From positions 4,542 through 68,541 of IMG/VR virus record IMGVR_UViG_3300034012_002457: a stretch of DNA of 64,000 bases. One strand, given 5' to 3'. Made by a program: the position numbers and the translations under genes. The notes beneath the pieces were generated by a model, which ran no database searches, had not been told where the DNA came from, and saw nothing but the letters and a program-made list of their open reading frames with translations. Of the stretch, positions 4,936 to 45,871 are shown in pieces. Each line of letters opens with the position of its first letter. Position 1 is the stretch's first letter. This DNA is from a virus.

Positions 4936-4944
4936 GGCTAAGCC

Positions 4945-6961: not shown

Positions 6962-7307
6962 GAAACAGAGAGGCCGGGCGCAAACGCTGCAAGCTGATTG
7001 TAGGCGAGATCTTGGTTTCTGAATGCCAGACAACTACTGCCCGTTTCTTTCCACCATTAAAAACAAAACCAATGAGAGTACCGACAATGCTAGTCAGCAT
7101 CCATCCTGCTGCTGTTGGCTGCACATATACCACTTCTTCTCCAGGGCACCATTCGTGATCGCGTGGGGTGTGTGGAAGCTGAAATGGACGGTGCTCCGTA
7201 GCTTTAATTACGGCTTTCTTTCCATCGTCCACCTTGTAAACAAACTGTCTGCCATAGCCCCTCCTGGTTAGGCTAAAGCAAACAGTTTTGGAATAATGTC
7301 CACGCAT
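6948..7307 (-). CDS. Hypothetical protein (start uncertain)
   Basis: ORF overlapping the thyX start. Confidence 0.45.
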   Translation of the reverse strand: MRGHYSKTVCFSLTRRGYGRQFVYKVDDGKKAVIKATEHRPFQLPHTPRDHEWCPGEEVVYVQPTAAGWMLTSIVGTLIGFVFNGGKKRAVVVWHSETKISPTISLQRLRPASLFHGSH

Positions 7308-12454: not shown

Positions 12455-14431
12455 ATGGCATTTTCTATTCTGGAGCACCTCGGCAAACTGGAGCCCAGCG
12501 ATCACGCAGGCAAATATATCTGCCCAGCATGCGAAGGCAACGACTTTTCCGTTAACGAAGAAACCGGCGCATACAACTGTTTCAACGACACTTCCGCAAA
12601 GCATCGCGCTGAAATTCGCAATGCATTGGCACCATTGGAACGATGGGAACGTCCGCAGCGCCCCTATCAAAGATATACTTTCTCCTACGCAAACCGTGAT
12701 GGGGAAACGGTTCTGGAGGTGGTGCGCGACGATTCGTCGGGCAAGAAAAGCATTCGCCAGCAATATCCAACCATTCCTTCCAGCGTACAAAAACGCAAGA
12801 AAGTAATTGACGAAATTAGAACAAACATACTGCCCTATCGTTATCAAGAAGCCATTGATTTTTCCAAGGCAAATAGTTTGCCAATCTTTGTCGTTGAAGG
12901 CGAATTATGTTGTGACAGACTTTGGGAAGTTGGGCTTCCTGCTGTTACTTTTCTTGGAGGCAGTGGGCAATATCGAAGCAACGGTGACTATTCTTTACTA
13001 TTTCGCCAGCACCAATTAGTTCTCTGTCCAGACCGTGATGAGCCTGGCGTGGCTCTCATGCGTGAAGTGGCGGCTGATAACCCTGGCTCACAGTGGCTCT
13101 ATGCGGAGCCGGACAGTTTTGAATGGGAAAGCCTGCCACAAAACGGCGGCTATGACATGGCCGATTGGTTGGATGACGGTGCCGACCAAGAACTGATTCT
13201 TGCCTCCATCGTCTTTAAAGACCGGCACGAGGGCCGCGACGGGCGGCCCTCTTTTGAGGAGATTATCGCCACATTTGAACGCATGGTTGGCCTTTACAAC
13301 AACGATGCGAGAGTAATTTTTGAAGCGAGAGAGTGGCTAACGCTTCATGAAGTGAAGATGCCAGCCACGGAAGTGGAGAAGCTCCTGGCTGAAGCAAGAT
13401 CCCGCGTGCATGGCCGTGAGGAGATGGAAGTGATGGACGCTAAAACCATCGCCATGTCTGAAGATTCTCGCGCTTGGACCATTGCAGGCATCCTGCCGGA
13501 GAGCAGCGTCATGCTGCTGGCTGCAGCGCCTGGTAGCGGCAAGAGCACGCTTCTATACAACTGGGCATTGCACGTTGCCACTGGCTCTCCATGGAGTCGT
13601 CGCCGTTGCAAGAAAGGCAAATCTCTCATCATTCAATGCGACGAGCCAGTGGTCGATGCTGCAGAAAAAATGCAAATTATTGGCTACGACGACAACGAGA
13701 ATTTAGATAAGGGCGACATTGGCTTTATTGACCGCTGGCGCTTCAATAACATCCCTCAGCTTTTGTCTTATATCAAAAAGCATCGCCCGCAGCTCATCAT
13801 GATTGACAGTCTCACCTCCTGCCTTGCTGGCATGGACGTGGATTTGATTCGCTCTGACGCTGGTAATTGCATTTACGAACTCCGTGACATTGCCAATGAA
13901 TATGAATGCAGCATTGTCATCCTTCACCACTTAAACAAAAGTGGTGGCATTCGTGACAGTTCCAGCTTTGAGGCCAACGTTAGTGAAGTGGTGAAGCTTT
14001 ACCGGCAGGACAATAACTACGACACAACTCAGTTCATCTTTGAATGGACAAAGAGTCGTAGTGGCCTAGCTGGCAAGCATTTCCTGCGGCGAGATCCGGC
14101 CACGTATGGTTGGTTCTATGAAGGGCCAGTCAATGGCGGCAGGGATGATCTTGATCGTTTGGTGCAGGCCGTTGACACGCAGAACACGCGACGGTTTGAC
14201 CGCATGGCATTGTCCCGGCACGTGAGCAGCTTTGACAGCAATTTGGCTGGCCGCCTTGCTGAACAGGCCCGCCGTCAAGGGCTGTTAACTAGCAGCTTCA
14301 ATGTGGGCCCGAATGGTGAGCGTACTCGCCTCTACCAATCGTGGAACTACAAAGAAGAGGATTTCACTGTTTCCGCTGCCGCTGCCGCTGTTCCTGAACC
14401 TGTCGTTGAAGACGACGATATCTGGTTTTAG
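12455..14431 (+). CDS. DNA primase-helicase (Zn finger + TOPRIM + RecA-like AAA_25 helicase)
   Basis: CPAC...YNCF; VVEGE..CD, CPDRDEPG; Walker A AAPGSGKST, IMIDS, ILHHLNK. Confidence 0.9.
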   Translation: MAFSILEHLGKLEPSDHAGKYICPACEGNDFSVNEETGAYNCFNDTSAKHRAEIRNALAPLERWERPQRPYQRYTFSYANRDGETVLEVVRDDSSGKKSIRQQYPTIPSSVQKRKKVIDEIRTNILPYRYQEAIDFSKANSLPIFVVEGELCCDRLWEVGLPAVTFLGGSGQYRSNGDYSLLFRQHQLVLCPDRDEPGVALMREVAADNPGSQWLYAEPDSFEWESLPQNGGYDMADWLDDGADQELILASIVFKDRHEGRDGRPSFEEIIATFERMVGLYNNDARVIFEAREWLTLHEVKMPATEVEKLLAEARSRVHGREEMEVMDAKTIAMSEDSRAWTIAGILPESSVMLLAAAPGSGKSTLLYNWALHVATGSPWSRRRCKKGKSLIIQCDEPVVDAAEKMQIIGYDDNENLDKGDIGFIDRWRFNNIPQLLSYIKKHRPQLIMIDSLTSCLAGMDVDLIRSDAGNCIYELRDIANEYECSIVILHHLNKSGGIRDSSSFEANVSEVVKLYRQDNNYDTTQFIFEWTKSRSGLAGKHFLRRDPATYGWFYEGPVNGGRDDLDRLVQAVDTQNTRRFDRMALSRHVSSFDSNLAGRLAEQARRQGLLTSSFNVGPNGERTRLYQSWNYKEEDFTVSAAAAAVPEPVVEDDDIWF

Positions 14432-16340: not shown

Positions 16341-17090
16341 ATGGCACGGCCTGAGATTACGTTTGGCAGTCCAGAAGAGGAGCTTGAATATGCTTCCAAT
16401 GCATTGAAGAAAGCTGGTATTTCTGAAAGCCAGTTTGAAGCAGTTCGTGACACGCAAGTGCATGGTGGTACTGGTGCAGCAGGCTATAGCAAAGATATGC
16501 TTGGCCTTAGGCGATGGATGGTGCAAGAATTATTGGCGGCGTCAATGAGCAATCGCCAGATTGCGAATGTTCTGAAGCTAAGTAAAGAAACAGTCAATGG
16601 TGATAGGAAGTTTAATCGCCTGCTTTATACAGAAGAAATTTTGAAGAATCAAGACGTGCATCGCGCACGTCTTCTCAAGGAGCAGATGGACCTCAAGGAC
16701 ATGGCTCTGCAAAGTTTTGAGAATAGTAAAAAGAAACGAATTATTACAATGTCCGACAATAATGGGCAAAGTAATGAAACCGTCCGGCTTGAAGAAACGG
16801 CTGGCGATTCAGCATTTCTGACCGTGGCAAAGAACAGTCTTGTGGAGCAGGCCAAGTTATTGGGCCTCCACGAGGCCCGGCCAGTGGAGCAGCAAGATAC
16901 CAGCTATAGAAAGTTCCTTCAGGATTTGTCCACAACCATTCAAAAAGAAAAAGAATCTAAAGCTACAGAAGAACGTCGCGAGAATGCGCTACCAGCCAGC
17001 GCCGAAGCCATTAGCTTCGATCCATCGCCAGAAAACGAACAGTGGCCCGAGACGGTGCCTTTACAAACAATTAATGAAGACGACTATTGA
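16341..17090 (+). CDS. HTH protein, probable terminase small subunit
   Basis: MSNRQIANVLKLSKETVNGD HTH followed by a helical region and GD.AFL...EQAKLLGL, a terS-like pattern. Confidence 0.55.
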   Translation: MARPEITFGSPEEELEYASNALKKAGISESQFEAVRDTQVHGGTGAAGYSKDMLGLRRWMVQELLAASMSNRQIANVLKLSKETVNGDRKFNRLLYTEEILKNQDVHRARLLKEQMDLKDMALQSFENSKKKRIITMSDNNGQSNETVRLEETAGDSAFLTVAKNSLVEQAKLLGLHEARPVEQQDTSYRKFLQDLSTTIQKEKESKATEERRENALPASAEAISFDPSPENEQWPETVPLQTINEDDY

Positions 17091-22035: not shown

Positions 22036-23037
22036 ATGAGCCACCAATTCACCTCCGGCGCCTTTTTTCACGGCCAAGCCGCCTGGCACAAACTGGGCAC
22101 TGTCCTCGATGGCACCCTCCCCGCCCGTGAAGCTTTCCGCATGGCCAACGCTGATTGGCAAGTGAAAGCCTCGCCCATTTTCACCAGCGACATGCTGGAA
22201 ATTCCCGGCCATAAGGCCATCACCCGCGCTGACAACGGCACCGTCCTCTCCATTCAGAAAGACTCCTACAGCATCGTTCAGAACGAACAGCTCATCCGCA
22301 TTGCAGAGGCCCTGCACGAGGATGCCACGATGGATGCAGTGGTGGTACTGGCAGAAGGTCGCCGCGTGGCATTCACTGCAAAGGTGAACAATGCAGAAGG
22401 CGAAGTGGTGAAGGGCGACACCATCCACCAATATCTTGTTGGCTGCACCAGCCACGACGGCACTGTTGCCTTTCAAATCATGTTTAGCCCTGTGCGCGTT
22501 GTTTGCCAAAATACGCTCTCGGCTGCTCTAGGTCGTGCTGCTGCTGGCAGCAAGGCGAAGAAATTTGCCATTCGCCACACCACCAACGCAAACACCCTCA
22601 TCAGCAAGCTGCCTCAGCTCATCGACATGCAACGCCAGCAGTTCACTGGCGGCATGGAAGAACTGAAGGCTATGGCCAACAAGCCTTGCACGGCTGCTCA
22701 ATTCCGCGCCTATTGCGAGGAAGTGTTTGCTGATCAGCTTGTGGGCATGACCAACGACAAGCGTGGCGACACCACCACCGCCCGCCCCAAGAAGCTTGAA
22801 GACCTGGCTGCATGGGACAGCGTGGCCAACAAATTCGCTGGTGAAGGCATCGGCTTCAACATCCCCGGCGTGGAAGGGACCATGTGGGGCGCCTATCAGG
22901 CCATCACGGAGTATTTCACTCACGATGCAGGCCGCACCAAGGACTCCACGGAGGCTGCTCGCCAGCGCCTGGAAAGCCTCTACTGGGGCAGTGCTGGCGC
23001 CACGATCACCCGCGCTCATGCCTTGGCACTGGCTTGA
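22036..23037 (+). CDS. DUF932 family protein
   Basis: AWHKLGTV, Y.IVQNE, SHDG..AF...SPVRVVCQNTL, IRHT, GTMWGAYQAITEY..H. Confidence 0.88.
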   Translation: MSHQFTSGAFFHGQAAWHKLGTVLDGTLPAREAFRMANADWQVKASPIFTSDMLEIPGHKAITRADNGTVLSIQKDSYSIVQNEQLIRIAEALHEDATMDAVVVLAEGRRVAFTAKVNNAEGEVVKGDTIHQYLVGCTSHDGTVAFQIMFSPVRVVCQNTLSAALGRAAAGSKAKKFAIRHTTNANTLISKLPQLIDMQRQQFTGGMEELKAMANKPCTAAQFRAYCEEVFADQLVGMTNDKRGDTTTARPKKLEDLAAWDSVANKFAGEGIGFNIPGVEGTMWGAYQAITEYFTHDAGRTKDSTEAARQRLESLYWGSAGATITRAHALALA

Positions 23038-23133
23038 TAAGCAAGGCTGATGGTCAGGGGGCTTTACAGCCCCCTTTGTCATGAACTAACTTTAGTTTCG
23101 TTGAGGGGCGCGAGCCCCACCGCCTTCCAAGCC

Positions 23134-23847: not shown

Positions 23848-24123
23848 ATGCCCGCCTCCATCGTCCCCCACATCCCTACCATCCATCTCAATGGCACTGG
23901 AGCCACAACGCTCCGCCTTGAATACGAGAAGCTCTATTACGCCGTGCAGGACGCCATCGACGCACTTAGCGAAGCCACGCTCAATGGCCGCGACTTTTAC
24001 CCCCAAGGGCCTGATGCATACTATGAGGCCCGTGATCAACGCAATGAAGCCTTCTCCTGCCTCTATGCAGTGCGTGACTATGCAGGCCGCATCGTTGAAG
24101 GCATCGACGCCCAAGGAGCATGA
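23848..24123 (+). CDS. Hypothetical protein
   Basis: PTIHLNGT...NGRDFYPQG..AY..AR motif typical of phage early genes. Confidence 0.65.
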   Translation: MPASIVPHIPTIHLNGTGATTLRLEYEKLYYAVQDAIDALSEATLNGRDFYPQGPDAYYEARDQRNEAFSCLYAVRDYAGRIVEGIDAQGA

Positions 24124-24398
24124 CCATGCAAGCTCATGGCCTTTCCATCAACCAACGCAATCTGTTTTCTTATTTCCTGGCCCATAAGAAACGCCACAAG
24201 CACGCTCCCTGCTTTGTACCTAAGCTTCCCCTAGCAGGCTCCAATCTTCCCCTCTATCTCAATGCCCTAGAGGCTCTAGAAGCCAAGGGGCTCATCAGCG
24301 TGGATCGCTCAGCGCCGCATTACAGGGGCTGGATCATGAACCATGCCAAGGGCGTTTGTGAAGAAACGCAACAAGGCTTGACAGCCTCCTGGAAATGA
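24120..24398 (+). CDS. Hypothetical protein (winged-helix-like)
   Basis: ALEALEAKGLI.V; ATGA overlap. Confidence 0.55.
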   Translation: MTMQAHGLSINQRNLFSYFLAHKKRHKHAPCFVPKLPLAGSNLPLYLNALEALEAKGLISVDRSAPHYRGWIMNHAKGVCEETQQGLTASWK

Positions 24399-24406
24399 AC
24401 TAATTT
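24378..24406 (+). promoter_or_regulatory. Sigma70-type promoter
   Basis: TTGACA-N17-TAATTT; downstream ctaatttctatttcgtaca is identical to 23554-23572. Confidence 0.7.
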
Positions 24407-24448
24407 CTATTTCGTACAGGGCCGCGAGGCCCGCCCTCCTTCAAAACC

Positions 24449-24751
24449 ATGACTGCTCTCGCTCTCGTCTTCACTCTCGATAGCTTCCGCCCCACTCAAG
24501 GCCAGTGGTGGCGCCACGACACTTCGCGCAACATCGAACGCCGCGTGAAGCTGGTTGCAGCTCACCTTGGCTTCTGGCTCTGGACTGCAGACTTCCGTGA
24601 TGCCCATTCTGGCCGCATCCTTTCTCAGCGTTTCTTCTGCACCAAACCCAGCAGCGAAGAGCCCGTGGCTCTCTTTGAAAACCCCGATGATCGCCAGCGT
24701 TGGATGGAGATGCAATGGAAAGCACAGGAGGAGGCCAATGGAAACCGTTAA
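24449..24751 (+). CDS. Hypothetical protein
   Basis: ORF. Confidence 0.6.
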   Translation: MTALALVFTLDSFRPTQGQWWRHDTSRNIERRVKLVAAHLGFWLWTADFRDAHSGRILSQRFFCTKPSSEEPVALFENPDDRQRWMEMQWKAQEEANGNR

Positions 24752-24923
24752 CATCCTCGCAATCAGCAGCAAGGGCCGCAGCCGTATCGGCAAGGCCCTC
24801 ACCACTGCCATTGTTGAGCAAAACCATCACGACAAGCTTTTCATTGTCATTCCTGGCATGAATCAATGTCGATGGATAAAGAAAGACAACGACCCTGATT
24901 TTCGCATTGTTTCTGAGGATTAA
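24738..24923 (+). CDS. Hypothetical protein
   Basis: METVNILAISSKGRSRI...WIKKDNDPDFRIV; GGAGG RBS. Confidence 0.6.
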   Translation: METVNILAISSKGRSRIGKALTTAIVEQNHHDKLFIVIPGMNQCRWIKKDNDPDFRIVSED

Positions 24924-24925
24924 TC

Positions 24926-25093
24926 ATGGCTTCTCTTCAACTTTCCAATCAAGAACTTGCTTTGATGGCTTTGGTTTTCAATGAAGAATTAAAAAGAATT
25001 GAAAAAGAATTTGCAGAAGATTTAACTGATTCAGAATCTTACGCTTCTCAAATTAAACTTCTTCACCGTCGCATTCTTTCTTCCGTATCATGA
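24926..25093 (+). CDS. Hypothetical protein
   Basis: Manually read 55-aa ORF. Confidence 0.5.
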   Translation: MASLQLSNQELALMALVFNEELKRIEKEFAEDLTDSESYASQIKLLHRRILSSVS

Positions 25094-25266
25094 CTACTTT
25101 CATTCCCATTGTTAAAACTTCTCGCACTGGTCCCAATGGTCGCCTTATTCAATGCCCACATTGTAATTACGTTGCTTGCGTGGGTCATTTCAGTTGGTCT
25201 AGTTTAGTTTGCACTGGTTGTCATTCTTCTGTGGATAAAACCGATTGGACAATGGAGAAAAAATGA
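25090..25266 (+). CDS. Small Zn-ribbon protein
   Basis: Manually read; CPHC...CTGC; ATGA overlaps. Confidence 0.6.
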   Translation: MTTFIPIVKTSRTGPNGRLIQCPHCNYVACVGHFSWSSLVCTGCHSSVDKTDWTMEKK

Positions 25267-25571
25267 TGCATTACGTTTGCAACTACAGCGAAAACGGCCC
25301 GTATTGGCCAGCCACGCAGGGCCGCTATCAAGCAGCCCGCCTCAAAGAACTAATCTTTCACGTGCGCTTATGCATGGAAGATAATGACTATCAAATTGGC
25401 ATCTTTGATGAAAACAATGAATGTAAGGGCATGTGGTTAGATGAAGCCGAACCAGAGCCCGATGGCGAAGGTGGAATGGTTCTGCAAAAGCCTTGCTATG
25501 TGCTATATCGGCCTGGCAGCCTGAGTGCAGGCATGTGGAACCTTCATCTTTCTAAATTTAAGAAACGTTAA
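25263..25571 (+). CDS. Hypothetical protein
   Basis: ORF. Confidence 0.6.
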   Translation: MMHYVCNYSENGPYWPATQGRYQAARLKELIFHVRLCMEDNDYQIGIFDENNECKGMWLDEAEPEPDGEGGMVLQKPCYVLYRPGSLSAGMWNLHLSKFKKR

Positions 25572-25573
25572 TC

Positions 25574-25732
25574 ATGATTCTCATTGATTTCTTTAGCGAA
25601 GATTGCTGCAAAGGCACTGAATTAATCGAAGGGTGGTATTTTTATTCCGATAGCGATGATTCCATCATTGGGGGACCGTTTGAAAGTGAAGAGGCCGCCA
25701 TTCAGGCGGCCTTTGATGGCCATGGTTGGTGA
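25574..25732 (+). CDS. Small acidic protein
   Basis: Manually read; GWYF...GGPFESEEAA motif. Confidence 0.55.
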   Translation: MILIDFFSEDCCKGTELIEGWYFYSDSDDSIIGGPFESEEAAIQAAFDGHGW

Positions 25733-25894
25733 TTAATAAAAACTTGAATGGAAGGGTCCGGGTGAAAAATGTATTGTGAGATCCGGCTGGAAAATGTATT
25801 GTTCTGGAAAAAATTGGAACCGGCTGGTTTTTGTATTTTTGGATCCGGCCCGAAGCGTATCAGGCTCCCTGCCCGATTTTTCCGCCGCCTTGTT

Positions 25895-25913
25895 GATAAT
25901 GATTCTCATTTTT
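25895..25913. promoter_or_regulatory. Fur-box-like site
   Basis: GATAATGATTCTCATTTTT vs consensus GATAATGATAATCATTATC. Confidence 0.55.
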
Positions 25914-25920
25914 ACGGGGT

Positions 25921-25934
25921 AGTACATTTGTACT
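25921..25934. promoter_or_regulatory. Cyanobacterial LexA box
   Basis: AGTACATTTGTACT fits RGTACNNNDGTWCB exactly, within the palindrome gtagtaca-tt-tgtactac. Confidence 0.65.
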
Positions 25935-25948
25935 ACTTTTGGCCATTG

Positions 25949-26062
25949 ATAAGCTGAGCTGATCATTCCGGGCCGATCCATCAGCATCGCTTATCATATC
26001 AGGCATCCTGATCATTCCCTGGCCCTCCCATCAGCTCCGCTTATCTGATAAGCGCAGTTGAT
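25949..26062. repeat. Five LysR-type (T-N11-A) boxes ATMAG-N5-YTKAT
   Basis: Copies at 25949, 25980, 25998, 26030 and 26048. Confidence 0.65.
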
Positions 26063-26476
26063 ATAAAGAATTACACGCAATAAAGTATTCTCATCGTTGC
26101 ATCTTGCGCCACTAAATGTAGCTAACTGCCACGCGGCAGAATGCAACCTACTGTTTGCCGCTAACTGATGCTCACTGTGCGCCCTTAAATATAGCCTATT
26201 GTTTCGCGCTAAATATAAATATTTCAGAATGTAACGTAGCGCCGCAGTCTCGCCCGTCTCATGGTAGGCGCGCGCGCTTGCGCGGTTCCTCCTATGGGGG
26301 GCAGCCATGGCAGCAGCAGCAGCAGCCCCTACCATCCCTGCCCCCTCACAGCCCCTGGCTACTGGGCCACCTGTCAGGGTGGCCTACTGGCCCCTTCCTA
26401 GGGGCTACCTGCTAGGGGGCAAGCCTGTAATGTGGGGCCGTTGGCGCGAGCCAGCCCCCCCATCGCTTCCAAACCA

Positions 26477-28099
26477 ATGACCAAGACCAAGACCCTTAAG
26501 GCCGTCGACCCCCAGACCGGGGCCATCTTCACCCGCCGCACTGAGCGCTCCTACGTGGCTGCTGTTGTCTTCACCGATAGCAGGGGCGAGACTTGCTGCG
26601 ATTCTTGGTGTGGCAGGCCCGACCTGGCAGACAAGGCTCTAACCAAGGCTCGCAAGGGCTGCCCGTCTGCCCGCCTGGCCCCTGTAGTTGATCCTGCTGC
26701 CCCTGCCCCTGCCCCCCATCCCTGCAGCGCTGAGGCCGTGGCTGATGATGCCTGCCAGGCCCTGGCTGAGCTGAGCGCAGAGGCTGAGCCCGCCCCTGCC
26801 CCTGGCCCCCTGCTACCAGGAGAGGCCCCCCGCCCGGCCCCTGCCCCCTTTGTCTACAACTGGGCTCAGGGGGCCCTTGGAAAGCCAGCCCCTGCCCCTG
26901 AGCTGCCCGCTTTTGTCACGTATGGGCAGCAGCAGCAGCAGCCGCAGCAGGCCCCCGCCGCTGCCCCTGCCCCCTTAGTGCAGCCTGGCCCCCTGGCCCG
27001 CAAGACAGCCCCCGCTCACCTGCCCGCCGATGTGGCCGCCCTGCTGCAGCGGTTCGGCCTGACGCTTGAGGGCCTCCTGACCGTGGGGGCATCCAACGCC
27101 AAGCTGGCCAAGGGGGCGGCCCTGGCCTGGCCCGTGATCCTGCACCACCTGCCTGCCCGCTCCCTGGCTGCTGCCATCGCAGGCCCTGAGGCTGGGCCCA
27201 CGGCCCCCCGTTCGCGGCTGCCTGGCCTGGCTGAACTGGCCAAGGCCCAGAATGTCTACAGCCTGGCCCTGGCCCATAACGGCTGCCCCTGGGCCTCCGC
27301 TGGCTGTGCTGCTGGCTGCCTGGCCTGGGCTGGCCATGGGGGCCTGTCCGTGACGGTGGCCTCAGCCCGTGCCCGTCGCACCCTGGCGATGCTGGCCGAT
27401 GGCCCCGCCTACACTCGCGCCATTCTCTGGGCCATTGCTCGCGCCTACCGGCAAGCCCAGGCCAAGGGCCTGCCCCTGGCTGTGCGCCTACGTGGCACGG
27501 ACGATCAGCCCTGGCATCTGGCCCGCCTGAGCATCAGCCCCGCAGAGGCCCAGGCCATCGCCCGACGCTACGGCCTGCCCGTGACCCCTGGCCAGGGCCA
27601 GACTCTGCCCGAGGCTCTCAGCCTGGCCCCCGATGGCAGTATCCGCCTTTATGAGTACAGCAAGGCCCCCACAGACGGCCCCCTGGGCCTCCTGGCCCAG
27701 CAGCGGGCAGGATGGGACGTGACGGCCTCCCTAGCTGCTGACAGGCCAGACGGCCTCAGCCAGGCCCTGCAGGCCGTGGCCGCTGGGTTCCGTCTGGCTG
27801 TGCCTGCAGCATTCCCGAAGGGGCAGCCCCTGCCCGATGTGTTGATCCTCCGCGATGGCGAGACCGTGGCCCGCCTGCTGTGCCTTGATGGCGACGTGAC
27901 GGATCACCGCTGGGCCGACCCTGCAGGCCCCCAGCCCCTGGGCTTCGATGGCGTGGCTGTGCTGTTGAGAACCAAGCGAAGCCGGGGCCGTGGCCCTGCT
28001 GCTGATGCATTCAGCCTTGCTCCCATCGTTGGGGCCTGGCAGCCCCTGGCAGGCGGGGGCCAGGCAGCATTCAGCACCACACAATGGGAGGCCGCCTGA
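26477..28099 (+). CDS. GP88-like protein (Cys-motif) with Pro/Ala-rich N-terminal linker
   Basis: SNAKLAKG, CPWASAGCAAGCL..AGHG, VRLRGTDD, YEYSK, DGDVTDHRWADP; very GC-rich. Confidence 0.65.
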   Translation: MTKTKTLKAVDPQTGAIFTRRTERSYVAAVVFTDSRGETCCDSWCGRPDLADKALTKARKGCPSARLAPVVDPAAPAPAPHPCSAEAVADDACQALAELSAEAEPAPAPGPLLPGEAPRPAPAPFVYNWAQGALGKPAPAPELPAFVTYGQQQQQPQQAPAAAPAPLVQPGPLARKTAPAHLPADVAALLQRFGLTLEGLLTVGASNAKLAKGAALAWPVILHHLPARSLAAAIAGPEAGPTAPRSRLPGLAELAKAQNVYSLALAHNGCPWASAGCAAGCLAWAGHGGLSVTVASARARRTLAMLADGPAYTRAILWAIARAYRQAQAKGLPLAVRLRGTDDQPWHLARLSISPAEAQAIARRYGLPVTPGQGQTLPEALSLAPDGSIRLYEYSKAPTDGPLGLLAQQRAGWDVTASLAADRPDGLSQALQAVAAGFRLAVPAAFPKGQPLPDVLILRDGETVARLLCLDGDVTDHRWADPAGPQPLGFDGVAVLLRTKRSRGRGPAADAFSLAPIVGAWQPLAGGGQAAFSTTQWEAA

Positions 28100-28320
28100 T
28101 GGCCCGCCCGCCCCTGCCCCCCATCCTGGGCCCTGATGGCCAGCCCCTGGCCTGGGCCTCTCCTGGCCCTGATGGCCAGCCCCTGCCCCTCCTGACTGAG
28201 GCCCTGGCAGCCGTGCTAGCTCGCGACGCTGCAGCCCATGCCCACGCCCAGGCCATCAGGCAGGGGCTCTGCCCCCCTCCTGCCCCCTCTGCCCGCTGGC
28301 TGATCAGCGACCGCGACTAA
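28099..28320 (+). CDS. Hypothetical Pro-rich protein
   Basis: ORF overlapping the upstream stop; internal GPDGQPL duplication. Confidence 0.5.
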   Translation: MARPPLPPILGPDGQPLAWASPGPDGQPLPLLTEALAAVLARDAAAHAHAQAIRQGLCPPPAPSARWLISDRD

Positions 28321-28647
28321 GGGCCTCCTGGGCTCCTCTCCTGGCCCCTCAGGCAGCCCCTGAGGGGCTCTCTGTTGCCCATAGGCTGCCCCTGCTGGCT
28401 TGGCCTCTCTCCTGCTGCAGGGCCTCTCTTGGCTGATGGTGGGGATTAGAAGCCCTATTGCGAGCGATTCTCAACTAGACTGTACCATTTCAATACGTTA
28501 CAACTGTTCACCGTGAACAGACGCGGGCGAAACGCCAGTGGTAGCGTGGAGCAGTAGCACGGCAGTTTGTGGTTTGAGGGGCGCGGTATACCTCGTCAAA
28601 AGTGCAACCAAAAATGATCGAAAATGGCCAGCAATAAGTACAATTAC

Positions 28648-29142
28648 CTACCAATCAAGGGACTCAACGATAGCGCGTCCCACTGCTTCAGTGAGAATTT
28701 TTAATTCTTCGTGCGTAGCGTAGCTTTTGAAAGTATTTGCTTTGCTGCTAATTATCCATACATTTCCTTTTACGTAGCCTTTTGTTGGGTCAATGCGATC
28801 TAGGGACGGGCTATTTGCAATTCCTCCTGATCCTTTTCCGCGATAAGTGGACCATTCAAGAGGCATACCAAACACTGGGCAATGCGAGACGACAAGAGAG
28901 CGGATGTATTCATGATCAATGTCAAAGGGGAGATTTTTTTCTTTAGCGCGTTTACGAGCGCTTTTAACCATATCTTTTGTTTGCGTTAGCACGGGATTAT
29001 CTTTTTGATATTGTTTTACATTTAAGGCGTGGCATTGCTTGCACGAAGTATAAAGGCCATCTTTAGTGCCAGTATGTTTATAGAACTCACTCAAGGGCAT
29101 TATGATGCCGCATTTAGAGCATTGTTTTTGCTGCGAGTCCAT
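28648..29142 (-). CDS. HNH homing endonuclease
   Basis: CSKC..EFYK...CKQC; CPVFG...PSLDRIDPTKGYVKGNVWIIS.KAN. Confidence 0.88.
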   Translation of the reverse strand: MDSQQKQCSKCGIIMPLSEFYKHTGTKDGLYTSCKQCHALNVKQYQKDNPVLTQTKDMVKSARKRAKEKNLPFDIDHEYIRSLVVSHCPVFGMPLEWSTYRGKGSGGIANSPSLDRIDPTKGYVKGNVWIISSKANTFKSYATHEELKILTEAVGRAIVESLDW

Positions 29143-29865
29143 GCGAGAGGGACAATCGTTGCAAAGCTTAACAAGTAAAAAACTAGTAGTCACACGCTGA
29201 ATCAAGCCCTCGCAGAGGGCGCAGATGAAGCGTTCTCCTCTTCCTCCTCTAATGGAGGCGCCCAAAGCGCCGTAATGATGCACAAAGAAGCTGGCATTTT
29301 CTAAATTCGCGCATTTTCCTTGCATCGTCTATCGCTTAAAGCGGCCCCTTAGAGGGCCGCTGTTCTAGACAATATTACTTTTTCTTAAAAAAACAGCCCG
29401 TTCTGGCTGCTGCGTATAGTTTCCCAAGACCATTACTTAGGACTGGTCCAGCCTTTTTGTATTTCGCCACTCGCCAGTAGCTCCGTCCCTTTGGGGGACT
29501 CCGCATTATTAAGAGCACCGTGGCTTGTCTAGCCTTTTTAGCTCATCACTCCGCGCTTTAGGCGCTTCGTTGGAGGGGAAGGTGCTCGGGAGAGGCTAGC
29601 GAGGAGCGTCTAATTGCTCTGGAGGGGCGAAATTTAGACGCTGCTGCGCTTACGCATATCGTAAATGCTCTGTCAAGCTTTGTCAAGAGGCTCAAAACCC
29701 TTGCAAATACTAGAAAGGGGCCTAAAAGGCCCCGAAAACCATGGAAAAATTGCCCGTTTCTTAAGGATGTCTTCTGTTTTGTCAGGCAATGAAGAAGAAT
29801 GTATTAAAAACTACCAGTCAAATTGTTGATAGTGACTAGCCTGAAATGATCACCGCTAATTAATT

Positions 29866-30057
29866 ATGTGGGGCCTGCCAGAACGTCAACCATTTAACAT
29901 TGGCCCCTATAAACTTTGGCCTTGTTTTAGTAGGCCAGAATTTCAATGGTTTGCAGCAGTAGATGGCAAGCCTCTTTATTTCCGCACGTCCAATGAAGCG
30001 AAATTATTTTTCAATGATCTGCTAGCAGTGGACGATCCAGAAGGGCTATGCGATTAA
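29866..30057 (+). CDS. Hypothetical protein
   Basis: ORF. Confidence 0.55.
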   Translation: MWGLPERQPFNIGPYKLWPCFSRPEFQWFAAVDGKPLYFRTSNEAKLFFNDLLAVDDPEGLCD

Positions 30058-30148
30058 AGGAAGTTTTCCATTCCTGCATGGGAAAAATTGGCTAGCCTGC
30101 CTGTTGTAAGTTTTGGGGCCGTAAGGCCCTTTCTTGTCTCTGGAACCA

Positions 30149-31576
30149 ATGGTTGACAAAATTGCCCGCACTGGCAGGGTGCAAAGCTGGATGGAAAGCC
30201 CGAATGGACGGCTGCCGGTTAGCTGCACGGTGTTCAACGTGCAAGATTCAATGGAAGGAGGGGACGGCATTGAAGCGTCTTGGCGCTTTGTTAGCCATGG
30301 CCTGCGTAATGGTGCAGGAGTGGCGGTGCATCTTTCTGAGCTTCGCCCCAAGGGCGAAGAAAATGGCAAAGGCTTGGTTGCTAGCGGGCCTATCAGCTTT
30401 GGCAAAATCTATTCGACGCTCAATGAAATTCTGAGGCGTGGTGGTTTATACAAAAATGGAGCTGTGGTCCTGCATTTGGACTACACGCACCCTGACGCCA
30501 TGGAATTTGTCAATGTTTCCAGACAGGAACTGCCTTGGACGAAGCGTTGCCTTAATGTGGACGAGCAGTTTCTGGACAAGGCTTCGCCTGGGCTGATTAA
30601 TGCCGCTCTTCGTGCCATCTCTGCTGGCGACCTCTGGCTCAATAAAATTCGCTACAACGACAAAGGCGAGCGCATCAGAGCGAATGTATGCCTGGAAGTT
30701 TATCTTCCGCATCGTGGCACTTGCTTATTGCAGCACATTAATCTTGGCGCATGCAGCATTGATGAAATTAAAGGGGCGTTTGTTGAGGGCATGACGCAAC
30801 TGTGCGAGCTTCATGCTCAAACAGGCGTTGGCGACACTGGTGAATATCTTCCTCCCATTGTTGACAAGCAAGTGGGGCTTGGCCTGTTAGGTCTGGCTAA
30901 TTTCTTGAGCATTCATGAAATTAGCTATGCCGAATTTGGCAAAGCGCTAAAGGCGTTTAATCAGGAAGATCCAGAAGATTGGTATGAAGTGATGGACAAA
31001 CCAGTGGGCAATGCTGTGTTTGCCATTCACAAAGGCATTCATGCTGCGGCTGACATTGCGCGTGAGGCTGGAATGGACCGTGCCTTTGCCATTGCTCCCA
31101 CTGCATCGTGCTCCTATCGCTACCAGGATCTTCGTGGCTTTACAACCACGCCCGAGATTGCCCCTCCCATTGCTCGGGAAGTAGATCGTGATAGTGGCAC
31201 GTTTGGCGTGGAAAGCTTTGATTATGGTCCCGTGGAGACTGCAGCAGAGGTGGGCTGGGAAGCTTACAAGCTTGTTACAGACGAGCTTATTCGCATGTAT
31301 CAAGCGAGCGGATTGCTCCATGGCTATTCGTTTAATTCGTGGAGCGATGTGGTTGTTTATGACGAAGCCTTCCTGAAGGATTGGCTAGAATCTCCTCAGA
31401 CGAGCCTCTATTACAGCCTGCAAATTCTTCCGGACACTCAACGGAAGGATGATGCATATGCTGCATTGGACGACGATTTTAAGAGCATGTTTGGCTTAGA
31501 CGATGAGTCTGAAGCTGAAGGCCCTTCTGCATCTTGTTCCGTAGAGGCTGGATTCTGCGCTGCATGCGCTGAATAA
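30149..31576 (+). CDS. nrdA: Ribonucleotide reductase large subunit (short cyanophage Cyano-SP type)
   Basis: LPVSCTV, ANVCLEV, TCLLQHINL, AIAPTASCS, C-terminal CxxC. Confidence 0.88.
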   Translation: MVDKIARTGRVQSWMESPNGRLPVSCTVFNVQDSMEGGDGIEASWRFVSHGLRNGAGVAVHLSELRPKGEENGKGLVASGPISFGKIYSTLNEILRRGGLYKNGAVVLHLDYTHPDAMEFVNVSRQELPWTKRCLNVDEQFLDKASPGLINAALRAISAGDLWLNKIRYNDKGERIRANVCLEVYLPHRGTCLLQHINLGACSIDEIKGAFVEGMTQLCELHAQTGVGDTGEYLPPIVDKQVGLGLLGLANFLSIHEISYAEFGKALKAFNQEDPEDWYEVMDKPVGNAVFAIHKGIHAAADIAREAGMDRAFAIAPTASCSYRYQDLRGFTTTPEIAPPIAREVDRDSGTFGVESFDYGPVETAAEVGWEAYKLVTDELIRMYQASGLLHGYSFNSWSDVVVYDEAFLKDWLESPQTSLYYSLQILPDTQRKDDAYAALDDDFKSMFGLDDESEAEGPSASCSVEAGFCAACAE

Positions 31577-33648: not shown

Positions 33649-33722
33649 TACCCTCGGTGGGAGTCGAACCCACACTGGAGCGATTTTAAGTCGCTTGCCT
33701 CTGCCGGTTGGGCTACAAGGGC
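33649..33722 (-). tRNA. tRNA-Leu(TAA), short variable arm, no encoded CCA
   Basis: GCCCTTG/CGAGGGT acceptor; AGCGA-CTTAAAA-TCGCT; GTGGG-TTCGACT-CCCAC. Confidence 0.88.
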
Positions 33723-34185: not shown

Positions 34186-35553
34186 CTAGGAGATTAAGCT
34201 TTCGATCCATCCAATGTCATCATCTTTAGATGCAGCCAAGATTGCACCAGCCATTGCAAACGCTAAGTCGTCAATCCCCGTAGCCTTGCCGCCAGTAACT
34301 GTCCATTGTCCACTGGGCTTGTAAGTGACAGTAAGGTTTTTGATTTGCATGATGGCTTTCTCGTGGCGATATAAATTAATTTGCCCTGCATTGAACAATT
34401 CCCGCATTTTGCTGAAAGCCTTCATTTTGGAACTAACGGTCCAAGTTAGTTCCGTAATAGGCAGATCACCGGCAAGAGTTTGAATGGTGCCAGCACTATT
34501 GAACTGGTCCATCACAATTGTGTCAAAGACGTATAGGCGATGCTGCTCTTTTATCCAATCTTCCACTGCATTGATATTCACTTCCATCCTTCCATTGATT
34601 TCAAAATCAGCAGCAAAGGAATGGAATTTATCAACGACTAACGTGCCGTTTTCAAAATGAACAATACAAGCAGTGTAATCATCACGGCCAACCCCACCTC
34701 GGGCAGGGTCCAGGGCCAAGACATAAGCACCTTGGAATTGGGCTCTGGGTGGTAAAGCCGCTCGACGGTCATCAATACAGGCGTCAACAACATCACTGGA
34801 AACAAGAGCTGAAAGATTACTGGCAAATTGAGCGCCATATTCCACTTTAAATTTTTCAGGGTCGCGCTGTCTTTCTGTGTCAAGAAACTCTTGCGAAATG
34901 CGAGGGTTCATCTCCCACGTTGGGAGGTTTACGGCTTGCATGAAAGGGAAGCGGCCAGACGCTGCTTCTTTGAAATGCTGATAGAAGATGCCGTCAGTAA
35001 GCCAGGGGGAGGATAGTTCTAGGATGCGCCCATGACCGCCAAACTGAGCGATAGAAGGAGAAAGAGCGTCATAAATGCCACGTCCGCCGGAGTTAGCATC
35101 GCCTTCTGTGGCGAATGCAAGTTCATCAAAAACAGCACCGGCGCAAGCGAGACCACGAGCAGCACGCCCGGAAGTTGGTATAGCTTTAAAAACGCAGTGG
35201 TTACTAATTTCAATGATGTCGGCAGTTTCACGAACAATCTCTTGAGCGAAGGGACTTTCGATGATGAGCTGCCGGATGTTGTTTAGAGCAATGCGAGCCT
35301 GATCTTGACTGTTCGCAACAGTAACAACGTACCAGCGTTCTCCTTTTCTTACTTTACGACGATATTGTTCCTCTAGGACGAAACACATATAGATGCAGGC
35401 AATGGCTGCCATGAGCGTTTTGCCTGAGCGTCGCCCGAGAGCCCACACTGCATGCGACTTGCCGGGCTGAAAAAATTCATCGAGAATTTCAGCCTGTTTA
35501 GGAAAAAGCTCTAAATGAAGAGCGTGTTTGGCAAAGTCTGAACAGCGAAGCAT
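34186..35553 (-). CDS. terL: Terminase large subunit
   Basis: GRRSGKT Walker A, VFDE Walker B, LSSP, EYGAQF, ALDPA, DQFN, DDLAFA. Confidence 0.9.
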   Translation of the reverse strand: MLRCSDFAKHALHLELFPKQAEILDEFFQPGKSHAVWALGRRSGKTLMAAIACIYMCFVLEEQYRRKVRKGERWYVVTVANSQDQARIALNNIRQLIIESPFAQEIVRETADIIEISNHCVFKAIPTSGRAARGLACAGAVFDELAFATEGDANSGGRGIYDALSPSIAQFGGHGRILELSSPWLTDGIFYQHFKEAASGRFPFMQAVNLPTWEMNPRISQEFLDTERQRDPEKFKVEYGAQFASNLSALVSSDVVDACIDDRRAALPPRAQFQGAYVLALDPARGGVGRDDYTACIVHFENGTLVVDKFHSFAADFEINGRMEVNINAVEDWIKEQHRLYVFDTIVMDQFNSAGTIQTLAGDLPITELTWTVSSKMKAFSKMRELFNAGQINLYRHEKAIMQIKNLTVTYKPSGQWTVTGGKATGIDDLAFAMAGAILAASKDDDIGWIESLIS

Positions 35554-36050
35554 TACAACAATGATGAGAGAGGCTGCAAATAGTGCTTGGGAACGAAGAA
35601 AGCTGGACGACCTTTAACATGCTCTTTTTTCCATTGATCTTTCATGGCGTCTTCGCTTTTTATCCAGCCATGCACAAGAGTTTTTTGGTTTTCAATGGTC
35701 ACGAGAACAAATATTTTTCCAGGCTTTTCGTCTAATTGCACCACTAAATCATAGTAGTGGCGAGCACGAGTTTTAACATCAATGTTGGGAGGGAGGTCTG
35801 CGGAGCCTCGTTTGGCCGTGGTTTCCTGGTAGAGGAAGTGCTCCATGTCGAGCAGAGCGGCGACGGCCATTTCTCCTGCTGCTCCAATGAGATGGAGGCG
35901 AAGGGCTTCGCTGCCTGATGCTGGGCCGTTGTTCCGACCCTTAAGACCTAGTGCAGAATTGACGGTTTGACGGCGGTTGGCTTCGGCGTAGACAGCCTTT
36001 CGCTGCTCGTCGCTGAAGGCAAATTGCAGAGGGCTAGCCATACTGGCCAT
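35553..36050 (-). CDS. PD-(D/E)XK-like hypothetical protein
   Basis: GAAGEMAVA...D....IDVKT. Confidence 0.6.
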   Translation of the reverse strand: MASMASPLQFAFSDEQRKAVYAEANRRQTVNSALGLKGRNNGPASGSEALRLHLIGAAGEMAVAALLDMEHFLYQETTAKRGSADLPPNIDVKTRARHYYDLVVQLDEKPGKIFVLVTIENQKTLVHGWIKSEDAMKDQWKKEHVKGRPAFFVPKHYLQPLSSLL

Positions 36051-36097
36051 AGCAACCAGGCCAATGTAGCCAGCTTTTAGAATGAAAGCAATACATA

Positions 36098-38194
36098 ATG
36101 GCCTTAAGAAAATCAATGGATAACGAAATGGTTGATTTGGGGCATGCTTCCGAGGGCGGATTGCGTGCTGACGGCCTGCAAAACGTGCTCATTGGCATGG
36201 GCACCAGCCGGGACAAGGGCCAGTACACCAAGACCACGGCTACAATTTTTCTAACGCAAGAAGAACTAGAGAATTTGTATGGTGAATGGCTGCCTCGTCG
36301 CATTGTTGACATTTATGCTGACCAAGCCACTCGGAAAGGCTTCAAAGTATTGTTTGGCGGAGATGGCGTTAGAGCCGAAGAGGTGCAAGGTATTGAGCAG
36401 GTAATTGAAGATTTATATATTCTGGAATATTTAAATTTGGCGGCAAAGAATTCTCGCCTTTATGGCGGGGCCTGTTTGCTGCTGTTTATTGATGATGGTC
36501 GTCCGGCCTATATGCCAGTGGACAAACGTAATATTCGCCGCATTGAAGAAATCGAATGTTTAGACCGTTGGCAAATTGCACCAGTCATCACTGAAGAAAA
36601 TCTATATGACTATTCAAAGGCAACGTACTATCAAATTATTTCCGGCGATTTAATTAATGAGCCCACTTTGTCCTACATCCATAGAGATAGGATTTTGCGC
36701 TTTGATGGAGATTGGCTGCCCTATCGCATTAGGCAACGCAATTACGGCTGGGGCATGAGCAGCCTTCAAACTGTTTATGACAGCTTCCGGCATTATTGGA
36801 CTGGCTTGAATTCAGCGGCTACGTTGCTCACTGAGTTTGACATTTTTGTGCATAAAGTGAAGGGACTTGCGGCAATGCTGGCAGCCGGAAAGGAAGGTGC
36901 TGTCAGGGATAGGCTGCAAGTGAATGATATGAGCAAGAGCATCTATCGCGGTTATGCGATTGATGCAGAGAAAGAAGAGCTTGAATTTATTAGCCGCAAT
37001 TTTGGCGGCATTGGGGAAGTGTTGGAGAAGCTGCGCGTGGACATTATTGGCGCCAGCAAAATTCCTCATACCGTGCTGTTTGGCGAAAGCCCGAGCGGAC
37101 TGGGTTCGACTGGCCGCAGTGAAGAGCGTGATTTCGCCAAAACGCTTGCTGACTATCAAAGCGTCCATTTCAAACGGCCTATTAAGAAGCTGATGGAATA
37201 TATCATGCTGAGCAAAGAGGGGCCAACGAATGGAAAGCTGCCCGAATCTTGGCGCATCTCCTTCAATCCATTGTTTGAACTCAATGAGCGAGAAATGGCC
37301 GACGTGCGGGCGCGTGTGGCGGCTGTGGATGGCCGCTACATCCAGCTTGGCGTGCTGAGTCCGAAGGAAGTGGCGGACGCCCGTTACGGCGGTTCTGAGT
37401 GGAGCATGGAGCTAACGCTCGACCCAACTGTCATTCGCGAACTTCCTGCTCAAGGTGGGGGTGGTTCCACTCAAGGACGGAGTGGTTTCGCTGTGCCGCC
37501 TGGCGGTCGCGATCCGATGGACGAAGAGAATGGCACGTTACCGATGGATGGCAGCCGGGAAGTGGAAGATTCGGCTGGCTTGTTCCTGCCTCGCGATCTT
37601 GAGAAAGTGCGTGGGGATGTGGAATTTACTGACAAGGAGCTGCATTCTCGCGCTGTTAGCGCAGCCAAGGCGAAGTTTAAGGTGTGGCCCTCGGCTTACG
37701 CAAGCGGCTATGTGGTGCAGCAATATAAGCAAATGTTTAAGAAAAAGCACGGCTCATTAAGCGGCGCTTTCAAAGGAGACGAAGGCGAAATTCATGCCGA
37801 TGATCTTGAGCAATGGTTCAAAGAAGAGTGGGTGAGGATTGGCGCCAATGGCGAAATCATGGGGCCATGCGGCGGACGTGGCGAAAAGGAGGGCAAGCCA
37901 AAGTGTTTACCTAAGGCCAAGGCTCAGGCTATGAGCGAAGAAGAGCGGCAAACGATTGTTGCCCGTAAGCGCAAGGCCGATCCCGATCCAGAGCGCCGTG
38001 GCCCGGCAAAGATGGTCAGCAGCAAAGTGGATGCTATTGACCCATTAAAAACCAGCGGCCTAGTGCTGGGAGATGTGGACGAGGCTTCGTTGATTTCGGA
38101 AGAAGATATTGACGCCGCATTGAATCAATGGAAACAAGAAGCGCCGGAACGGTTTAAGGACATTCTGGAGGCCGAGGATGTCCAACCCTCTTAA
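36098..38194 (+). CDS. Portal protein (DUF1073/HI1409 type) with C-terminal DUF5872-like extension
   Basis: RIVD..A..ATRKG, RLYGG, IHRDR, IPHTVLFGESP.GL.STG; PSAYASG and WFKEEWV..CG...KCLP modules. Confidence 0.85.
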   Translation: MALRKSMDNEMVDLGHASEGGLRADGLQNVLIGMGTSRDKGQYTKTTATIFLTQEELENLYGEWLPRRIVDIYADQATRKGFKVLFGGDGVRAEEVQGIEQVIEDLYILEYLNLAAKNSRLYGGACLLLFIDDGRPAYMPVDKRNIRRIEEIECLDRWQIAPVITEENLYDYSKATYYQIISGDLINEPTLSYIHRDRILRFDGDWLPYRIRQRNYGWGMSSLQTVYDSFRHYWTGLNSAATLLTEFDIFVHKVKGLAAMLAAGKEGAVRDRLQVNDMSKSIYRGYAIDAEKEELEFISRNFGGIGEVLEKLRVDIIGASKIPHTVLFGESPSGLGSTGRSEERDFAKTLADYQSVHFKRPIKKLMEYIMLSKEGPTNGKLPESWRISFNPLFELNEREMADVRARVAAVDGRYIQLGVLSPKEVADARYGGSEWSMELTLDPTVIRELPAQGGGGSTQGRSGFAVPPGGRDPMDEENGTLPMDGSREVEDSAGLFLPRDLEKVRGDVEFTDKELHSRAVSAAKAKFKVWPSAYASGYVVQQYKQMFKKKHGSLSGAFKGDEGEIHADDLEQWFKEEWVRIGANGEIMGPCGGRGEKEGKPKCLPKAKAQAMSEEERQTIVARKRKADPDPERRGPAKMVSSKVDAIDPLKTSGLVLGDVDEASLISEEDIDAALNQWKQEAPERFKDILEAEDVQPS

Positions 38195-45288: not shown

Positions 45289-45593
45289 GCGAATATGTGC
45301 GCGTCATCGAAGAAGAAGACGAAGGCATTGGTCTTTTGAAGGCGCTAGCCATTCTTTCCGCAAACGAACACCGCAATACTTCCCAGTGGGAACTCGTTGA
45401 AAAGCAATGCTTTAAGAATGGTCGCTTAGATGAAACTCACATCTATGTGATGAGTGTTTACGAAAAGCCCGACCCTCATTTTGACCCCACCAAGTTTCTC
45501 ACGTTTGAAATTGAGGCGATGGCTAAAGCTTATATCATGGAAGGCATTGAAAGTCAACTTAGCGAGCTTCGCGGAGATGACGACGAAGATTAA
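45285..45593 (+). CDS. Hypothetical acidic protein
   Basis: ATGA-coupled ORF. Confidence 0.6.
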   Translation: MSEYVRVIEEEDEGIGLLKALAILSANEHRNTSQWELVEKQCFKNGRLDETHIYVMSVYEKPDPHFDPTKFLTFEIEAMAKAYIMEGIESQLSELRGDDDED

Positions 45594-45871
45594 TGTCGCG
45601 TATGGGCGATAAAAGACGGATAGCCCATCAGCCATAACACGCTTATCCCATAGAGGCCGCTGAGGGTGCGAATTTGCACGCAGTCTGGCGGGACAGTGGC
45701 GCGTTCAATGCGTGAATAAGAGCTTTGACTGATATGGAGAATTTCAGCCACATCCTTTTGTGAAAGGCCGCTATTTAAGCGAGCGTCCTTGACACGCTGA
45801 GCAATGAGCAATCGCGCCTGCTGGTGCGGCATTTTAAGCACATCGGCGTTGCTCTTTGCCAGGAACATCAT
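45590..45871 (-). CDS. XRE-family HTH transcriptional regulator
   Basis: RVKDARLNSGLSQKDVAEILHISQSSYSRIE. Confidence 0.85.
   Translation of the reverse strand: MMFLAKSNADVLKMPHQQARLLIAQRVKDARLNSGLSQKDVAEILHISQSSYSRIERATVPPDCVQIRTLSGLYGISVLWLMGYPSFIAHTRH

Follow-up and report, generated by a model that had tools for sequence, protein, structure and literature searches.

A modular non-coding block built on predicted host-regulator sites as a candidate control region of a virus related to Synechococcus siphovirus S-CBS4

The DNA analyzed here (the window) is a stretch of 64,000 nucleotides, bases 4542-68541 of the 68,541-base virus record IMGVR_UViG_3300034012_002457 from IMG/VR, which carries direct terminal repeats and is rated complete. 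Between a run of small genes and a GP88-family gene, it contains a non-coding block of ~500 bases in which a putative LexA box, a putative Fur-family box, and five phased dyads stand between two arrays of direct repeats. As judged from its sequence, the block is rated as a candidate phage control region built on predicted host-regulator sites. The reading that we favor, though tentatively, is that of a modular cis-acting control platform that would be gated by host signals and is placed before accessory cassettes. Through such a platform, the condition of the host cell would probably feed into the expression of phage genes or into replication.

Elements of the block and their consensus matches

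The block shows a fixed order of elements: A-array, Fur-like palindrome, LexA box, dyads, AT-rich piece, and D-array iterons. These features, those adjoining them, and one dyad outside the block are:

25755-25864, plus strand: A-array, four direct repeats of ~24 bp with a CCGG-N9-10-GTAT core, starting at 25755, 25780, 25817, and 25841
25895-25910: Fur-like box GATAATGATTCTCATT, with a 7-1-7 core TGATAATGATTCTCA at 25894-25908
25919-25936: perfect 8-2-8 palindrome containing the LexA-consensus box AGTACATTTGTACT at 25921-25934
25949-26062: dyad array, five 15-bp dyads at 25949, 25980, 25998, 26030, and 26048, forming two units of ~49 bp with conserved linkers CATTCC-N-GGCC
26058-26086, plus strand: sigma-70-like match TTGATA-17-TAAAGT (9/12), the only one in the block; its first hexamer overlaps dyad 5
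26063-26095: AT-rich piece (~33 bp) with two ATAAAG(A/T)ATT motifs, at 26063 and 26080
26105-26240, plus strand: D-array, 5-6 degenerate direct repeats of ~24 bp of the GCGC-TAAAT-TAGC-TACTGTTT type
26241-26268: right edge of the shared block, ending ...CATGGTA; beyond it, the type of the window and relative L008 and the type of relative L039 are wholly divergent
26269-26476, plus strand: GC-rich leader of the downstream cassette, holding a doubtful 57-residue open reading frame (ORF) at 26307-26480 that overlaps the next start by ATGA
26432-28099, plus strand: GP88-family gene (PF17338), probable start ATG 26477
23037-23051: isolated high-scoring dyad ATAAGCAAGGCTGAT outside the block, reaching from the stop of a DUF932 gene into the start of the gene after it; relatives L033, L045, L046, and L061 have this dyad at the corresponding junction

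The stretch 25733-26431 was found to be non-coding. Substitutions among nine close relatives were not biased toward a codon position in any overlapping ORF (19/83, 18/84, and 19/84), and the ORFs crossing the arrays merely translate the repeats. A search of 24000-31000 against Rfam (E up to 1) returned two sub-threshold chance rows only, and no tRNA was detected in the block. A preliminary description of this DNA had called the block gene-free, a claim borne out by the substitution pattern, and all three motif types that it had placed there (Fur-like, LexA-like, and dyads) were recovered. Its statement that the next gene starts more than 400 bp after the last box holds for a start at ATG 26477 (415 bp) but not for one at GTG 26432 (370 bp). 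It had overlooked both the A-array (four direct repeats, 25755-25864) and the array of ~24-bp iterons at 26105-26240. No nameable match was found for either the A- or the D-array. Four of the five matches of the A-unit pattern in the window lay within the A-array, and none was on the minus strand.

The cyanobacterial LexA consensus is AGTACWNWTGTACT, according to PMC3091678. The box of the window fitted both this consensus and RGTACNNNDGTWCB exactly. The LexA pattern was represented by one palindromic site, counted as two strand-matches, against a mean of 0.19 in shuffled sequence, and one of 100 shuffles reached 2. No other site was present across the 68.5-kb genome, even with one mismatch. 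Most of 23 distinct phage rows keep TGTACT as the right half and leave the sixth base of the left half free (by eye, unscored), one exception being L048 with GCGTAC. The same asymmetry, with TGTACT on the right and a variable sixth base on the left, is seen in most host sites in Table 1 of PMC3091678. At the sequence level, the preliminary reading of this element as a LexA site was upheld by an exact match to the cyanobacterial consensus and by its repetition in relatives. No LexA DNA-binding domain was encoded by the phage. In the portion of the literature that the search opened up, no paper on LexA boxes in cyanophage genomes was evident.

The core of the Fur-like box is one mismatch away from TGAGAATNATTCTCA and matches 16 of the 19 positions of the Escherichia coli Fur consensus. 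With up to three mismatches, this 19-nucleotide consensus gave a single match in the window, at the Fur-like box, against 0.00 in shuffles. With up to two mismatches, TGAGAATNATTCTCA gave four matches against 0.27 expected, and its sole 1-mismatch site was that in the block. The Fur label was supported by sequence at the level of the Fur family, the core being one mismatch from a 7-1-7 Fur box of other bacteria. TGAGAATGATTCTCA stands before Fur-regulated operons of Enterococcus faecalis, and the Xanthomonas Fur consensus is close to TGAGAAT(C/G)ATTCTCA. An 89% copy of the Fur-like stretch lies at 25567-25585, the start of the small ORF upstream of the block.

The five dyads fit ATMAG-N5-YTKAT and are spaced 31/18/32/18. 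In the window, 15 strand-matches to this pattern were counted, whereas 100 shuffles gave a mean of 1.14 and a maximum of 4; five of its nine sites fell within 114 bp. A reversed control pattern had no match in the whole 68.5-kb genome. Dyad, LexA, and Fur patterns were all commoner in the window than in shuffled sequence. From 90 distinct sites, a dyad consensus of ATAAGC-N3-GCTTAT was derived, with C allowed at position 3. The dyads had been labeled LysR sites because they contain T-N11-A. All five do, but the chance rate is ~1 position in 16, and the rule is non-diagnostic because any A-T-N11-A-T string satisfies it. LysR-type regulators usually employ a recognition and an activation site upstream of a promoter, and their own gene usually lies divergently. 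Here, five equal dyads with a fixed 31/18 phasing and no divergent gene were found, and no LysR-family gene was seen among the ORFs scanned; the label found no support. Outside the block, the excess of dyads over chance was modest. A single block-type dyad was also noted in the terminase-portal gap of S-CBS4 (record positions 7283-7297) and of L065 (12565). The junction dyads hint at a trans-acting factor that may have several targets.

Recurrence and modular exchange in related phages

IMG/VR was searched for two adjacent dyads, independent of the neighboring gene, and 35 loci were obtained. They are not independent of each other: they comprise 26 distinct dyad arrays, including that of the window, and four are contigs already present among the 25 IMG/VR loci found with the GP88 protein. 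One of the 35, L055, is apparently a chance match. Several of the GP88 loci had the same upstream layout even at 59-66% protein identity. The same element order and dyad phasing recurred across the dyad-search loci. GTAC-N4-GTAC stood beside the dyad array in 32 of the 35 (on one side in 30, on both sides in 2), the strict LexA consensus was present in 29, and at least three A-units of the CCGG...GTAT type were found in 22. Dyads were separated by 18 (53 times), 31/32 (62 times), 49/50 (8 times), or other distances (5 times), the 18- and 31/32-bp gaps together making up 115 of 128. A Fur-like site with at most two mismatches was present in 16 loci and perfect in three; the others had CATATGCG-type tracts or nothing at this place. 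The preliminary description had suggested looking for the same boxes in related phages; dyads and LexA boxes recurred there, the Fur-like box in part of the loci. Perfect TGAGAAT(C/G)ATTCTCA was carried by L054/L063 and L057, and it is the same as the Fur box of the E. faecalis operons. Tracts of 8-9-bp units (CATATCGG / CATATGCG) were seen at L047 5040-5160, L043 9490-9600, and L048 2980-3030; they lie between A-array and LexA box, the position of the Fur-like box in the window.

The boxes themselves hardly varied. Among nine close relatives, 1 of 16 columns was variable in the LexA box and 0-1 of 15 in each dyad; taken together, the boxes had 0-1 variable columns of 15-16 each versus 67 of 145 in the D-array. 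The D-arrays also vary in sequence between lineages, and alignment of those from close relatives shows gaps of 24 and 48 bases, equal to whole 24-bp units.

Other parts of the block are exchanged as units. An array related to the A-array, GACCCGGCTAG-N4-5-GTATC, occurred in relatives, some of them without dyads. A search for the A-array in IMG/VR gave at least 119 hits, chance matches included; 24 of the 72 new loci examined had at least three units in a row, and ten of these 24 had LexA boxes or dyads behind them. Some phages retain the A-array and continue with quite different repeat modules. Conversely, L024 and L026 retain LexA boxes and dyads with a different A-unit sequence. The ATAAAG(A/T)ATT motif is inverted in L024 and is also part of the 34-bp repeat units of L012. 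In L012, the dyads are replaced at 4682-4982 by a very AT-rich stretch of 300 bp with five 34-bp repeats that multiply ATAAAGAATT, which the window has twice (26063-26089). The block is modular.

The right boundary is sharp. Phages with otherwise near-identical blocks lose all similarity at 26268, and in place of GP88 some carry a DUF7227 gene (E 7e-75); other genes also occur. GP88 and DUF7227 are not detectably related (hhalign probability 0.1), and a single superfamily behind every block is for this reason no longer assumed. An abrupt break followed by alternative genes might mean that the block is mainly a boundary of recombination or cassette exchange, a conserved landing stretch beside free-standing homing endonucleases, in which the repeats would be by-products or sites for recombination proteins. 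In line with this, HNH genes immediately precede the block in many relatives and also occur at the distal end of the cassette, and in S-CBS4 the upstream gene is followed directly by the one that precedes the ribonucleotide reductase. However, a boundary of this kind would account neither for boxes that match host-regulator consensus sequences exactly nor for the constant phasing of the dyads or the low variability of the boxes. Moreover, no inverted repeat copies lie at the other insertion end, and no integrase or resolvase was found. We consider this explanation improbable. Cassettes behind a constant non-coding platform with a LexA box are also reminiscent of the integron platform, which is LexA-regulated and in which cassettes are inserted behind a fixed promoter and an attachment site. 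The exchangeable single-gene cassettes fit this comparison, but the block lacks an integrase and attC-like cassette ends. Cassette exchange at the block is more likely driven by homing endonucleases than by integron-like means.

In S-CBS4, a cultured phage, the block, the A-units, and LexA boxes are missing altogether, and of the motifs only one isolated dyad is present. Its deposited record is opened (positions 69420/1) exactly where relatives carry a 4.3-kb insertion of block plus cassette, and an unannotated S-CBS4 ORF homologous to window 25245-25571 spans the ends of the record. The position of this opening, and the multiple short protein-binding repeats typical of such sites, would suit a packaging site, an attachment site, or a transposon end. 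In opposition to this, the terminase genes are 8-10 kb off and on the other strand, an integrase or resolvase domain was not detected, matching inverted repeats elsewhere and inverted A-units were missing, and S-CBS4 does without the block. A scan for dyad pairs in 185,579 species genomes (596 billion bases) gave 20 scattered hits, none of them in a record with a cyanobacterial title. Therefore, the block is a phage feature that was not seen as a prophage, and a role in packaging, attachment, or transposition is extremely improbable.

Predicted function of the block

In four to five lineages (L034, L059, L062/L065, and L054/L063), only 0-2 nucleotides separate neighbors among the Fur-like box, a LexA box, and the first dyad, an arrangement like that of stacked operators. 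Conservation of both order and phasing suggests an assembly that acts in cis, and a block that stays constant while the downstream gene changes fits a platform serving whichever cassette follows. From this we infer binding events, a direction of control, and a promoter as follows. Host LexA would bind its one or more consensus boxes, a Fur-family protein of the host the neighboring 7-1-7 palindrome, and a dimeric factor of phage or host origin the phased dyads, in a cooperative manner. Jointly, the bound factors would decide whether rightward transcription starts in the block or passes through it. In this way, DNA damage and metal status of the host would govern expression of the cassette and perhaps that of the nucleotide-metabolism genes that follow it. 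The two direct-repeat arrays may be further protein-loading sites of the same assembly. This reading is further favored by the consensus quality of the boxes, by their low variability, and by the flanking genes, all of which are rightward. Strict LexA boxes numbered 1-4 per relative and occurred only within the block; in three near-complete relatives, which have 3, 3, and 1 LexA-consensus boxes, none lay outside it.

Several observations weigh against such a platform. In the window itself, Fur-like box, LexA box, and first dyad are not abutting but 10-12 nucleotides apart, and there is only one LexA box. A convincing promoter was not found in the window block: the best candidate reached 9/12, and the sigma-70-like match must be regarded as weak because promoter-like sites were no more numerous than in shuffles (2 found, 1.9 expected). 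Nor did the promoter scan find one at the Fur/LexA/dyad junction of L065 or L034, where a hexamer called by hand was without the required T at position 6. No candidate dyad binder co-varies with the arrays. A weakly GerE-like ORF and the only protein with an HTH_3 domain, a type of helix-turn-helix (HTH), are core genes, both present also in S-CBS4 and the genome G002, which have no arrays. A lysogeny context was not evident because no integrase, resolvase, or ParB domain was found. Finally, the two direct-repeat arrays, with 8-10 units in total, exceed the needs of an ordinary promoter and remain unexplained.

It is on these arrays that an alternative can be built, an iteron-type replication origin. 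In that case, repeats and dyads would load an initiator, the AT-rich piece would melt, and the LexA and Fur sites would modulate firing or activating transcription. Two arrays of 22-25-bp direct repeats, and dyads beside an AT-rich piece that is followed by a GC-rich stretch, are what such an origin would display. Iteron copy number changes by whole units among close relatives, and different repeat modules occupy the same place in different phages, as origin-specificity modules would. In addition, the cumulative GC skew has its minimum at ~29-30 kb, 3 kb from the block, and its maximum ~30 kb further on. The skew is not a clean two-arm pattern, however, and S-CBS4, which has the same primase/helicase-type backbone, lacks the block, which is thus not universal in the group. 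The block has no adjacent initiator; its neighbor is an exchangeable enzyme-like gene (GP88 or DUF7227) and not a Rep gene. The primase/helicase gene is 12 kb away, the AT-rich piece measures only ~33 bp, and the DnaA box (TTWTNCACA) had no match in 40 blocks. An origin is consequently unlikely, although it would account for the arrays. The iteron origins RK2 oriV, P1 oriR, and F ori2 resemble the block in their arrays of ~22-24-bp direct repeats, copy-number variation, AT-rich piece, and GC-rich stretch; the block differs from them by having no adjacent Rep gene and no DnaA box and by its absence from the cultured relative.

The number of boxes bears on a further proposal, made in the preliminary description, that the block is a DNA sponge that titrates host LexA, the Fur-family protein, and a third factor as the genome amplifies, so that host regulons are derepressed. 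Boxes of consensus strength stand where no promoter can be called, and they are carried on a multicopy replicating genome. Relatives have up to four LexA boxes (five in one further locus), two Fur-like boxes, and eight dyads. Nevertheless, the sites are few, the window phage having a single LexA box plus an imperfect Fur-like one, and a sponge needs neither the fixed order and 31/18 phasing nor a constant position before the cassette. Many relatives, furthermore, swap these modules for other repeats. A sponge is accordingly very improbable. Among the functions suggested earlier, a multi-input sensor is compatible with the tight packing of the boxes in relatives, whereas neither the sponge nor a platform that coats DNA with host proteins found specific support.

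Comparison with described systems places the block closest in function to SOS-box-controlled phage switches and lambdoid operator clusters and closest in shape to iteron origins. Its sequence has the features of LexA and Fur-family sites, and it lacks the defining context of a LysR site, an iteron origin, or an immunity region. SOS-box switches operate in tectivirus GIL01, coliphage 186 (tum), and CTXphi, GIL01 having no classical repressor of its own. In these phages, consensus host LexA boxes, sometimes several in succession, lie in a phage control region, and DNA damage alters expression. For the block, in contrast, neither a promoter nor a lysogeny gene nor a small LexA co-factor was identified. 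It also differs in stacking LexA with a Fur-family box and phased dyads, in its two flanking iteron arrays, and in belonging to uncultured cyanosiphoviruses. In lambdoid operator clusters and in the lambda origin, 15-19-bp dyads are arrayed with fixed spacing, those of the origin beside an AT-rich stretch. The block likewise has 3-8 similar dyads with conserved center-to-center distances and an AT-rich piece directly after them. Unlike these clusters, it is not flanked by divergent repressor/cro genes or situated inside an initiator gene, it has no co-varying HTH protein, and gaps of 18 and 31 bp, with linkers that are conserved, take turns between its dyads. As in a phage immunity or operator region, it contains several similar, regularly spaced dyads, but no repressor/Cro gene that adjoins or co-varies with them was found. 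Cyanophages are already known to borrow a host regulator by which they time or condition their own genes. For the block, the regulators would be LexA and the Fur family, and several site types are combined in one gene-free hub of a siphovirus.

The favored control platform could be extended to a developmental switch without a repressor of its own. LexA, a Fur-family protein, and the third dimer would hold a quiet carrier state, DNA damage or a change in metal would release the phage, and accumulating copies would drain the pools of host regulators. We regard this extension as decidedly unlikely; if true, the switch would explain at the molecular level why pseudolysogeny in picocyanobacteria depends on nutrients and stress. 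The block bears on two questions of aquatic virology, namely by what means cyanophages gauge the condition of their hosts and whether siphoviruses that infect picocyanobacteria can postpone or condition their development. It offers a concrete, widely conserved DNA target that keeps one position in dozens of phage genomes from lakes, and its 1-4 consensus SOS boxes, Fur-type box, and phased operator array make the question of host sensing testable. It also defines three repeat families (A-array, dyads, and D-array) and a site of GP88/DUF7227 accessory-gene exchange.

Downstream cassette and genome context

The GP88 gene behind the block has a G+C content of 63-71% versus ~49% in its surroundings, and the long GC-rich form in relatives has 65-72% versus 52-65% for the loci. 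Its product has a variable N-terminal part (the first ~130-200 residues in most relatives) with a P/A/Q-rich linker and contains three invariant cysteines. The fold of the GP88 domain was predicted with a mean local distance score (pLDDT) of 86.7. Neither a sequence search of the PDB nor a Foldseek search of the PDB at E up to 0.001 gave a hit. The BFVD returned only GP88 or uncharacterized proteins and one row named 'Gp37/Gp68-like', and the Atlas returned only GP88 clusters. Rows with radical-SAM or iron-sulfur names were far below significance, and no mention of PF17338 was found in the literature search. Most changes in the doubtful 57-residue ORF relative to L008 alter the residue, as read from the alignment.

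BLAST of 24500-27500 against 50,697 deposited phage records found S-CBS4 as the sole relative, the match being limited to the small upstream gene. Near-identical DNA was present in 24 listed DNA runs, most of them labeled as lake-water metagenomes. The group is best explained as uncultured freshwater S-CBS4-like cyanosiphoviruses. The remaining features of the gene map are listed below; ribonucleotide reductase, terminase, and portal were assigned from synteny with the annotated S-CBS4 record and ORF sizes.

568-3360, minus strand: tail fibers
3991-4935, minus strand: endolysin
After the endolysin in map order, leftward: nucleotide and recombination genes
12455-14431: primase/helicase
Up to 25732, rightward: run of small genes
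25574-25732, plus strand: acidic 52-residue ORF (family k5/c15) that closes this run and stops just 5' of the block; no family match; syntenic in relatives
28648-29325, minus strand: homing endonuclease, HNH / endonuclease VII-like, located at the distal cassette end
From 30134: ribonucleotide reductase
34186-36116, minus strand: terminase
From 36098: portal

Several HNH endonuclease genes are free-standing (in the window, 5414-5893 and 28648-29325), and many relatives have an HNH_3-type gene inserted immediately before the block, just upstream of the A-array. Gene-free stretches at 28321-28647 and 29326-29865 flank the second of the HNH genes of the window; the latter stretch contains two GC-rich hairpins.

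With respect to DNA-binding proteins, no HTH was found in the ORFs flanking the block. The 249-residue ORF at 16341-17090 (plus strand), a core gene, gave a sub-threshold match to a GerE/LuxR-type HTH (E 7e-4). The only HTH_3 (Cro/CI-type) gene of the genome lies 20 kb off, at 45593-45871 (minus strand, 93 residues), where it is oriented leftward inside the rightward structural module. It was a core gene in five of five genomes checked, and an ATTGT-N4-ACAAT palindrome (~45903-45916) is located in the gap upstream of it. The sole tRNA found, a tRNA-Leu with the anticodon TAA (33649-33722, minus strand), is situated between the nucleotide-metabolism genes and the terminase.

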